In this document: positions 27,334 to 28,082 of the stretch, piece after piece
How the letters are laid out: each line of letters begins with the position of its first letter
Position numbering within the stretch: position 1 is the stretch's first letter
Origin: Alphaproteobacteria bacterium
Lineage (GTDB): Bacteria > Pseudomonadota > Alphaproteobacteria > RF32 > CAG-239
Direction: 5' to 3'
DNA: 64,000 nucleotides
Assembly (NCBI GenBank): GCA_017477185.1
Contig: JAFUXF010000020.1
Span: 1,884-65,883, forward strand
Made by a program: the position numbers and the translations under genes
The notes under the pieces: generated by a model
Databases searched by the model: none
The model's input: only the letters and a program-made list of their open reading frames with translations
Told to the model about the DNA's origin: nothing

Positions 27334-27823
27334 ACAACTTTTCTGGCAACGATGGTTAAGAGGTGAAACGAAAAAAAGTCTAAGAGAATGGCTTGAAAGT
27401 CAAGGGGTAGATATTTCACTTTCTGGTGATAAACTCACCTTGTATCAACTTCAATGGATGGCTTTTGAAGAAGATTACGCTTTTTTCTGGGCTTATCTAT
27501 ATAAAAAATATACAGGACTCCCTGTTGACCTTAGACTTGATGAATTAGGTTGCCAACGCGGACGTAAGCTGGTTCACTTATCCAGACCTCTTTTAACTTT
27601 TCAAAATACATATGATGACAGAATTTGGGTTCCTTTGCCGATGAGTATCTCAAAAAATCCAAAGGTCTTGGAAGATGAAAAATATATCAAAATCAAGCCC
27701 GAAGATGTTGAAGCCGTGAGACAGTTTGTCATCAATCACTACGATTTACTGATGAAACACTGGAATCACGAGATTGATACGATGGAATTATGTGAAATTT
27801 TAGAAGAGGTAAACAATTCTTGA
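27326..27823 (+). CDS. Hypothetical protein with DUF4160-like C-terminal domain
   Basis: TGLPVDL...SISKNPKVL...VEAVRQFVINHYDLLMKHWN pattern; AGGAGG RBS. Confidence 0.6.
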   Translation: MTKQLFWQRWLRGETKKSLREWLESQGVDISLSGDKLTLYQLQWMAFEEDYAFFWAYLYKKYTGLPVDLRLDELGCQRGRKLVHLSRPLLTFQNTYDDRIWVPLPMSISKNPKVLEDEKYIKIKPEDVEAVRQFVINHYDLLMKHWNHEIDTMELCEILEEVNNS

Positions 27824-27846
27824 CAGCATCCAAAAAAATTTATAAT
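27820..27846 (+). promoter_or_regulatory. Sigma70-like promoter for the ArfA-like ORF
   Basis: TTGACA (27820) and TATAAT (27841) with a short 15-bp spacer. Confidence 0.5.
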
Positions 27847-27878
27847 TAAAAATCCCAATTAAAATGAAAGGAAATAAA

Positions 27879-28064
27879 ATGAGAAAACAAAAACAAAAAC
27901 GATTTAGGACAGGCGAAGAGCGAGCATTGCTTTTTGACCTATTTCATAATGGGCTATACCGCCAGAAAGTCATAGCCAATAAGAAGAAAAAGAATGACAG
28001 AAAGTTGTGGCGAGCAAAAAGAGAGGGCTATCCTTTAATTACGTTTTATTTTGAATGTGCTTAA
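27879..28064 (+). CDS. ArfA-like alternative ribosome-rescue factor
   Basis: Basic 61-aa protein; ALLFDLFHNGLYRQKVIANKKKK aligns with E. coli ArfA [19 protein letters not shown]; hydrophobic tail; AAAGGA RBS. Confidence 0.6.
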   Translation: MRKQKQKRFRTGEERALLFDLFHNGLYRQKVIANKKKKNDRKLWRAKREGYPLITFYFECA

Positions 28065-28082
28065 ACGATAGCCTTCTTTTTT
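28016..28082. terminator. ~30-bp hairpin spanning the ArfA-like stop codon (RNase III site and/or bidirectional terminator)
   Basis: AAAAAGAGAGGGCTATCCTTTAATTACGTTT pairs with GAATGTGCTTAAACGATAGCCTTCTTTTTT. Confidence 0.75.

Follow-up and report, generated by a model that had tools for sequence, protein, structure and literature searches.

The stretch of DNA analysed here, referred to as the window, comprises 64,000 nucleotides of an alphaproteobacterial genome (assembly GCA_017477185.1, contig JAFUXF010000020.1, positions 1,884 to 65,883 of the forward strand), and the gene of interest in it is a small open reading frame (ORF) for which, together with the family that it heads, the working label famX is used. 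A first-pass annotation had described this gene as a mobile, ArfA-like ribosome-rescue gene ending in a hairpin that would give rise to non-stop mRNA. The account favoured here, with modest confidence, is that famX encodes a divergent rescue factor of the ArfA/BrfA kind that would be made from non-stop mRNA, being either a remote relative of ArfA or a functional analogue of it. In the window, famX lies within an integrative element, is preceded by a promoter-like site and converges with a serine recombinase (resolvase) gene, and a long hairpin covers its last codons (Table 1).

The ORF of 61 codons was found exactly where it had been read, and its product carries a net charge of +12 on residues 1-46, followed by the hydrophobic tail that had also been noted (residues 47-61, KREGYPLITFYFECA), the net charge of which is 0. 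A 66-residue frame starting at 27864 was rejected because it lacks a Shine-Dalgarno sequence and because the starts of homologues match 27879. The Shine-Dalgarno sequence of the shorter frame was unchanged in 11 of 11 aligned relatives. The promoter hexamers, as read from the sequence, are separated by a 15-nucleotide spacer, and the site was not listed by a consensus promoter scanner because this spacing is outside the scanner's range of 16-18 nucleotides. When upstream regions of the closest famX relatives were aligned (11 of them), 9 had exact TTGACA and 9 had TATAA, with approximately 17 nucleotides between the two; to judge from these signals, transcription of the window gene starts at a promoter of its own, as had been proposed. 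Residues 17-39 (LLFDLFHNGLYRQKVIANKKKKN) form the conserved core, which contains the invariant columns of the family alignment and is the stretch that resembles ArfA in each of the comparisons described below (BLASTP, profile search against the PDB and hhalign). AlphaFold2, run with the family alignment, predicted helices at residues 12-23 (confident) and 35-49, with a mean predicted local distance difference test (pLDDT) score of 72, a predicted template modelling score of 0.36 and a pLDDT below 50 for the tail. This model was dropped as a query for structure searches, being too small and uninformative.

The hairpin of the window copy agrees with the stem of about 30 base pairs in the original description. 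It consists of 28 pairs between an A-tract and a T-tract, and takes in codons 47-61 together with the stop codon and the 18 nucleotides after it. Its predicted folding energy of -32.6 kcal/mol (z -5.3) was equalled by none of 200 shuffled sequences. When the segment from 48 nucleotides before to 21 nucleotides after the stop codon was folded for famX and for all 1253 ORFs of at least 150 codons in the same genome, the famX value of -29.8 kcal/mol was reached by none of the controls, for which the mean was -8.6 and the minimum -29.3 kcal/mol. From its sequence, this hairpin is likely to serve as a target of RNase III, as a bidirectional terminator or as both.

Homologues of the window ORF were noted in several kinds of search. 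Thus, a word-index search returned 23 proteins with 69-95% identity to the window ORF, none of which matched a Pfam family, and a profile search of 1.84 billion representatives returned 15 proteins at E<=0.001 (P0154, a 390-residue repeat protein, was left out of these). Searches at the DNA level gave 9 loci in metagenome-assembled genomes (MAGs) labelled Alphaproteobacteria or proteobacterium, many of them from rumen, as well as 29 metagenome loci and 1 IMG/VR viral contig; a tenth locus of the first kind (L011, a 546-residue ORF of Chloroflexi) was rejected as a chance match with a short motif alone in common. No match to famX was found in Pfam, PHROGs or PADLOC, and a tblastn search of the window ORF against 50,697 GenBank phage records gave two chance-level matches alone (E 4 and 6). 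The median ratio of nonsynonymous to synonymous substitution rates was 0.047 over a 40-codon core (15 sequences, 105 pairs), and on this evidence the famX ORF is a real gene under selection. Conservation is confined to 45-50 residues at the N-terminus, which carry the motif [FY]-x-L-[FY]-H-N-G-L-[YF]-[RK]-Q-K-[VI]-I-x-N-K-K-K. Past this part the ORFs extend for 0 to approximately 85 codons of unrelated sequence, giving total lengths of 51-136 residues; tails past the hairpin are unrelated among members, and conservation of the protein is lowest in the hydrophobic tail.

The position of the hairpin was surveyed in 46 famX loci, which remained from 58 (designated by L numbers) when 8 duplicates, 1 locus of insufficient length and 3 lacking the anchor motif had been dropped. 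A long hairpin or terminator begins within the ORF in 45 of these 46 distinct loci. The stop codon was inside the main hairpin in 20 loci, after it in 25 (by 1-210 nucleotides) and before it in 1, with the reservations that the count of L060 as inside is a script error, a secondary hairpin having been chosen in a locus where the terminator precedes the stop, and that the hairpin chosen for L073 is a weak one of 8 pairs. The same script applied to 30 true arfA loci from diverse Pseudomonadota placed the stop codon inside the hairpin in 13, after it in 17 and before it in 0. Thus, the location of the famX TAA within a 3′ arm is no objection to an arfA-like design, since it is shared by 13 of 30 true arfA genes. 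Stems of the true arfA genes have 13-37 pairs and begin 1-14 codons past KGKGSY, and the hairpins of famX start 5-18 codons past the NKKK motif and range from terminators of 12-15 pairs (AAAAAAGGTTGATATC...GATATCAACCTTTTTT) to perfect stems of 22-28 pairs without a T-tract. A T-tract at the base of the stem was counted in 29 of 46 famX loci by a rough script, outer A:U extensions of the stem concealing some T-tracts.

Although the hairpin sequence is unrelated between famX subfamilies, 18 of 20 representatives folded better than all 200 of their dinucleotide shuffles, the remaining two being equalled by 2 and 8 shuffles. RNAalifold, applied to 15 alignable members, found compensatory changes in 10 of 18 consensus pairs, and these covarying pairs join coding positions of the 5′ arm to non-coding positions of the 3′ arm. 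The stem-loop or terminator within the ORF by which arfA genes are distinguished was found in famX both in sequence and in predicted structure, and this gene architecture is, on sequence, the strongest evidence for an arfA-like reading.

Excerpts of PMC8012679 describe an arfA stem-loop that leads, through termination or RNase III cleavage, to non-stop mRNA, and, for brfA, a rho-independent terminator that precedes the stop codon, the brfA product likewise being made from non-stop mRNA; arfA and brfA are given there as the only known genes of this design, and both encode RF2-dependent rescue factors. The likeness of famX to ArfA extends to the size of the ORF (50-90 residues, the truncated active form of ArfA having about 50), to a basic N-terminal two-thirds followed by a variable and hydrophobic tail, to a hairpin or terminator that begins in the ORF about 10 codons past a lysine-rich motif and either encloses the stop codon or precedes it, to a similar core (L-x-H-x-x-L-[FY]-R-Q-[KR]-V-x-x-N-K-K) and to occurrence on phages or mobile DNA, ArfA having been found on phages and plasmids as well, both in the present searches and in PMC12753301. 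Differences from ArfA include 4-5 residues of the core (FHNG as opposed to HDP) and the hosts, which for famX are rumen or gut Alphaproteobacteria. BrfA (YqkK) of Bacillus subtilis, a 72-residue ORF with a terminator before the stop, is regulated by trans-translation and dependent on RF2 (excerpts of PMC8012679); it is likened to famX by gene design and not by sequence, in that the hairpin precedes the stop in the 25 loci noted above, many of them with a T-tract, whereas the stop of the window copy is inside the stem and not past a terminator.

By analogy with these systems, RNase III would cut the stem of the famX message, which would lose its stop codon. Such cleavage would be required for the window copy, the T-tract of which lies beyond the stop, and in other members an intrinsic terminator within the ORF would yield the non-stop message. 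The nascent peptide would be tagged and destroyed by tmRNA (transfer-messenger RNA) together with SmpB for as long as trans-translation has capacity. Once trans-translation was saturated or lost, a truncated peptide of about 46-55 residues with a net charge of about +12 would accumulate and bind the vacant mRNA channel, and its conserved core would recruit a release factor (RF2 by analogy), resulting in peptide release. RNase III cleavage, tmRNA tagging and rescue activity are each attributed to famX by this analogy.

The components that this scheme would draw on were found in the host genome (1.58 Mb, 51 contigs, 100% complete by markers). An alpha-type two-piece tmRNA is encoded at contig C35:6490-6842 and scores 210.7 bits with the Rfam alpha_tmRNA model, in view of which a blank result from ARAGORN was discarded; this tmRNA and the assignment of related MAGs to Alphaproteobacteria agree with the alphaproteobacterial host named at the outset. 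SmpB, RNase III, RF1 and RF2 are encoded as well. Exactly two genes with an RF-1 domain are present, one of them with the SPF motif and the upstream frame break typical of prfB, and no ArfA, ArfB or third RF-1-domain gene was found in this genome. Each of 201 genomes of the order carried RF1 and RF2 only, and ArfB (NF006718) scored above its cut-off in none of these 201 genomes compared with 2 of 14 control genomes. In Table 1 of PMC11633108, cellular arfA is listed for 0 and arfB for 2022 of 2376 alphaproteobacterial genomes. Since arfA is absent from the class in that table and ArfB from the 201 genomes of the order, the order would appear to be without a backup for trans-translation, on which it seems to rely alone unless famX or something else provides one. 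The earlier statement that ArfA is known mainly from other classes holds for alphaproteobacterial cells by the same table and fails for phages of Alphaproteobacteria, several of which encode PF03889 proteins.

Relationship of famX to ArfA was also examined at the level of protein sequence. The window ORF shared 10 of 20 residues with E. coli ArfA by BLASTP (pairwise E 2e-4), so that the ArfA-like core of the first-pass annotation is present in a weak form. A famX profile searched against 177,635 distinct PDB sequences gave 6 matches, all of them ArfA chains, with E values of 0.15-0.39. Alignment of famX with 31 diverse ArfA sequences by hhalign gave a probability of 41% (P 2.8e-4) and a score of 26.2, compared with a maximum of 19.7 for 300 column shuffles. 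When 7 phage ArfA-like proteins were added, the probability was 70.5% (P 3.9e-5) and the score 30.4, with a maximum of 18.8 for 100 shuffles, a few of which may carry stale scores owing to format errors in a few runs.

The added proteins are from phages of Alphaproteobacteria (Citromicrobium RXM, Roseobacter CRP-212, Erythrobacter XM05 and L02, Caulobacter Cr30, Pelagibacter HTVC027P and Roseobacter CRP-9); for the pelagiphage HTVC027P, an ArfA domain is reported in PMC12753301. PF03889 (gathering score 25.5 bits) was passed by 5 of the 7, and the same model, as a positive control, matched in 36 of 401 Pseudomonadota genomes. The HTVC027P protein scored 20.2 bits, under the cut-off, and the CRP-9 protein matched instead the viral family DUF7230 (PF23876, cut-off 27 bits) with 29.9 bits. 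The latter protein shares 20/34 residues with its PF03889 counterpart from CRP-212 and lacks KGKGS; the aligned strings are KVMPKKGKGSY for CRP-212, QVIPNKKNKHP for CRP-9 and KVIPNKKKKND for famX. Aligned with famX by itself, the CRP-9 protein gave an hhalign probability of 65% (P 6e-5). It is short and basic, its segment Y-K-P-Q-V-I-P-N-K-K-N-K shares the string VIPNKK with famX, and it differs from famX in showing no hairpin within the ORF. By sequence, the CRP-9 protein links the ArfA and famX types. The named clusters closest to famX in a protein atlas were DUF7230 (0.87) and one labelled ArfA (0.85, with 158 features in common); both fall below the 0.9 line and were treated as leads only. 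From these comparisons, remote homology between famX and ArfA is probable but unproven, and among named families DUF7230 comes closest to famX.

Some further observations were made on the phage genes. The ArfA-like ORFs of CRP-212 (L102:1489-1614) and CRP-9 (L106:362-517) are unannotated and overlap annotated coding sequences in other frames, and the CRP-9 frame is without an ATG. A clear hairpin in the ORF or at its end was seen in 2 of the 7 phage genes (L101-L107), those of Citromicrobium RXM and Erythrobacter XM05, and the others encode short proteins that end at an ordinary stop, as though expressed constitutively. A word-index search with the CRP-212 protein gave no candidates. In open-access papers and preprints, no paper naming DUF7230 was found, and phage-encoded or island-borne ArfA was found in PMC12753301 and a review of RNase R alone.

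Several findings weigh against the account favoured here. A match to the ArfA profile, the lack of which the first-pass annotation had named in advance as refuting, was not obtained: neither PF03889 nor PF23876 matched the window ORF (E<=1) or 25 famX members (E<=10), no match to either was obtained from the genome translated in six frames (E<=10), and a hidden Markov model built from 31 diverse ArfA sequences ranked the ORF 76th (E 75) among the 33,199 segments that six-frame translation of its own genome yields. The most conserved motif of ArfA, KGKGS[YF], was present in all 30 ArfA loci extracted and missing in every famX sequence, its place being taken by NKKKKND or NKKKAAK; the replacement of this motif had been seen correctly in the window copy. 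The likeness is greatest to the enterobacterial form of a single 20-residue stretch, and pairwise P values overstate the case because the ORF was picked for that resemblance. The window hairpin probably doubles as a terminator for the convergent resolvase gene, the segment AAAAAGAGAGGGCTATCC...GATAGCCTTCTTTTTT between the stop codons of famX and of the resolvase (28081-28083) having the features of a bidirectional intrinsic terminator, that is, a G+C-containing stem between convergent genes with an A-tract upstream and a T-tract downstream, even if a simple terminator scan did not list it. The stop codon of the window copy is upstream of the T-tract, so that termination alone would give a message with its stop intact, and cleavage would be needed for a non-stop one. 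Finally, spread of the family is patchy: of the 201 genomes examined in the order, 19 carried famX (7 of 22 genera), as did 1 of 10 genomes of the window's genus, the other 9 having none, and by its distribution it is an accessory, mobile and dispensable gene.

Some of these points have less force than others. A role of the hairpin as bidirectional terminator is compatible with a rescue gene. According to the sections of PMC6299226 concerned, contact of KGKGS with the mRNA channel is by charge and none of its residues is essential by itself, and ArfT of Francisella tularensis, a basic protein of 40 residues, has the lysine-rich KKGGSTNKK instead; loss of KGKGS therefore does not exclude a rescue function. 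ArfT is likened to famX by description and not by sequence, as a small basic factor with a varied motif, and differs in that the stop of arfT is preceded by neither a terminator nor an RNase III site and in that ArfT recruits RF1 or RF2 (same sections). On sequence evidence, famX is not a member of PF03889 or PF23876 and is at most a remote relative of ArfA, as was foreseen in the suggestion of a divergent family, here an unnamed one on phages and mobile elements. What stands of the original description is a real and mobile gene with a non-stop type of architecture throughout its family and a core that, among solved proteins, is closest to ArfA; membership in PF03889 does not stand.

The same evidence bears on other explanations of the gene. 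The in-ORF hairpin design is well supported yet silent on the function of the peptide, and famX could be a sensor of trans-translation, made from non-stop mRNA, whose product does not recruit a release factor and instead binds ribosomes or RNA so as to modulate, park or take over translation on behalf of phages or mobile elements. Absence of KGKGS and of a match to the ArfA model is in keeping with this explanation, as are the many famX members in phage-like DNA near genes for RNA ligase, a Ro/TROVE-like protein, HNH endonuclease, endolysin and tail tube. However, in structures of ArfA with RF2 and the ribosome, the part of ArfA between the N-terminus and the channel-binding tail contacts RF2, and it is with this part that the famX core aligns. 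The RF2 dependence of both known genes of this design, stated above, is a second point against such a sensor, which we regard as unlikely.

An ordinary small basic accessory protein, such as a DNA-binding or recombination-directionality factor for the resolvases, with a shared bidirectional terminator squeezed into the ORF end by compaction, is less probable again. Convergence of famX with a recombinase gene was noted in the window and in L002, L003, L004, L047, L051 and L052, the stems there are placed between an A-tract and a T-tract, the stop codon of the window copy is ahead of its T-tract, and the predicted helix at residues 12-23 could occur in any small nucleic-acid binder. In contrast, beyond the closest subfamily the neighbours are others and include no recombinase, while the hairpin stays within the ORF with unrelated sequence; a stop 1-210 nucleotides past the hairpin, as in 25 of 46 loci, is not explained by a mere terminator; a comparable overlap of stem and ORF was seen in none of the 1253 other ORFs of this compact genome; and no helix-turn-helix or other DNA-binding family was matched. 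An attenuator leader or arrest peptide, or a type I toxin-like small ORF with a regulatory, structured mRNA end, is very improbable, for although the tail of the window copy is short and hydrophobic and a gene with a strong Shine-Dalgarno sequence begins right past the hairpin in L061, L064, L071 and L076, no same-strand gene follows in the window and many other loci, approximately 45 residues are under strong purifying selection, and the conserved part is highly charged and not membrane-like, the hydrophobic tail being the part that varies most.

If famX is a divergent rescue factor of the ArfA/BrfA kind, release-factor-dependent rescue would extend to Alphaproteobacteria through a mobile ArfA-like family without KGKGS, the viral family DUF7230 would acquire a testable function, the non-stop message would have been kept where the protein drifted past recognition by profile models, and why phages and islands carry a rescue factor would become a question. 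A wider proposal, put forward tentatively and with some doubt, is that famX and DUF7230 form a KGKGS-less branch of release-factor-dependent rescue, spread by phages and islands in an order lacking ArfA and ArfB, that would sense saturation of trans-translation through its non-stop mRNA and would be used by phages and mobile elements to keep ribosomes at work while nucleases of the host or of rivals cut up mRNA or tRNA. A nuclease-countering role fits the RNA ligase, Ro/TROVE-like protein and phosphoesterase genes beside famX in phage-like contigs. Any role against RNA-cleaving toxins, defences or phage, as the first-pass annotation had also raised, is speculation from the mobile and phage contexts.

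Those contexts varied among loci. Distant, AT-rich subfamilies of famX are located in phage-like DNA, with neighbours that include a tail tube protein and HNH endonuclease (L053), an exonuclease and a Ro/TROVE-like protein (L063), an RNA ligase (L065) and an endolysin and phosphoesterase (L067, L072), and other loci have ordinary chromosomal neighbours. Both L074 and L076 are on contigs of 46,917 bases, one of which is listed as an IMG/VR viral genome, and they are probably a single phage contig carrying two famX paralogues, one of 61 residues with a hairpin in the ORF and the other of 51 residues with its stop before the hairpin.

In the window, the att-like repeats and the integrase bear out the description of famX as island-borne. 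The three genes upstream of famX had no match to a Pfam, PHROGs or PADLOC family; homologues of them adjoin famX in L002, L003, L004, L006, L047, L048, L050 and L051, that of the 202-residue protein being immediately upstream of famX in L004 and L006. A homologue of the convergent resolvase is at the equivalent position in L003, L004, L047, L051 and L052.

Table 1. Features of the famX locus and of the surrounding integrative element (window coordinates)
Feature	Position	Strand	Remarks
famX ORF	27879-28064	+	61 residues, very basic; 23 close homologues, low ratio of nonsynonymous to synonymous substitution
Promoter-like site	27820-27846	+	TTGACA 27820-27825, TATAAT 27841-27846
Shine-Dalgarno GAAAGGA	27866-27872	+	6 nucleotides upstream of ATG
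Conserved core	27927-27995	+	residues 17-39
Hairpin	28017-28082	+	28 pairs
TAA stop codon of famX	28062-28064	+	within 3′ arm of hairpin
Convergent serine recombinase (resolvase)	28081-28635	-	PF00239, 121 bits; stop codon abuts hairpin
Three upstream genes	26070-27823	+	202, 222 and 165 residues; accompany closest famX copies
Integrative element at tRNA-Met	13315-30181		~16.8 kb; integrase, type III restriction-modification, three resolvases, famX
tRNA-Met	30105-30181		3′ part repeated at 13315-13368 (87%)
Perfect 23-nucleotide arm-like repeat TCAGGTTGAACATAGGTTGAACC	13482-13504 and 30026-30048		just within each element end
Tyrosine integrase	13659-14876		with arm-binding domain
ADP-ribosylglycohydrolase beside DUF2779 protein	15513-17776		DUF2779 protein with weak Cas4-like matches
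Type III restriction-modification pair	18694-23435		Res 945 residues; Mod 634 residues, EcoP15I C-terminal domain
216-residue ORF	29105-29755		tRNA-proximal end of island; weak PADLOC match to Csn2, E 1.8e-5

The match of the 216-residue ORF to Csn2 is probably a coiled-coil resemblance. Upstream of famX in two further genomes, an ADP-ribosylglycohydrolase gene was seen in one (L006) and a gene for a macro-domain protein in the other (L007). The 3′ part of tRNA-Met is partly repeated once more at approximately 13147-13165.

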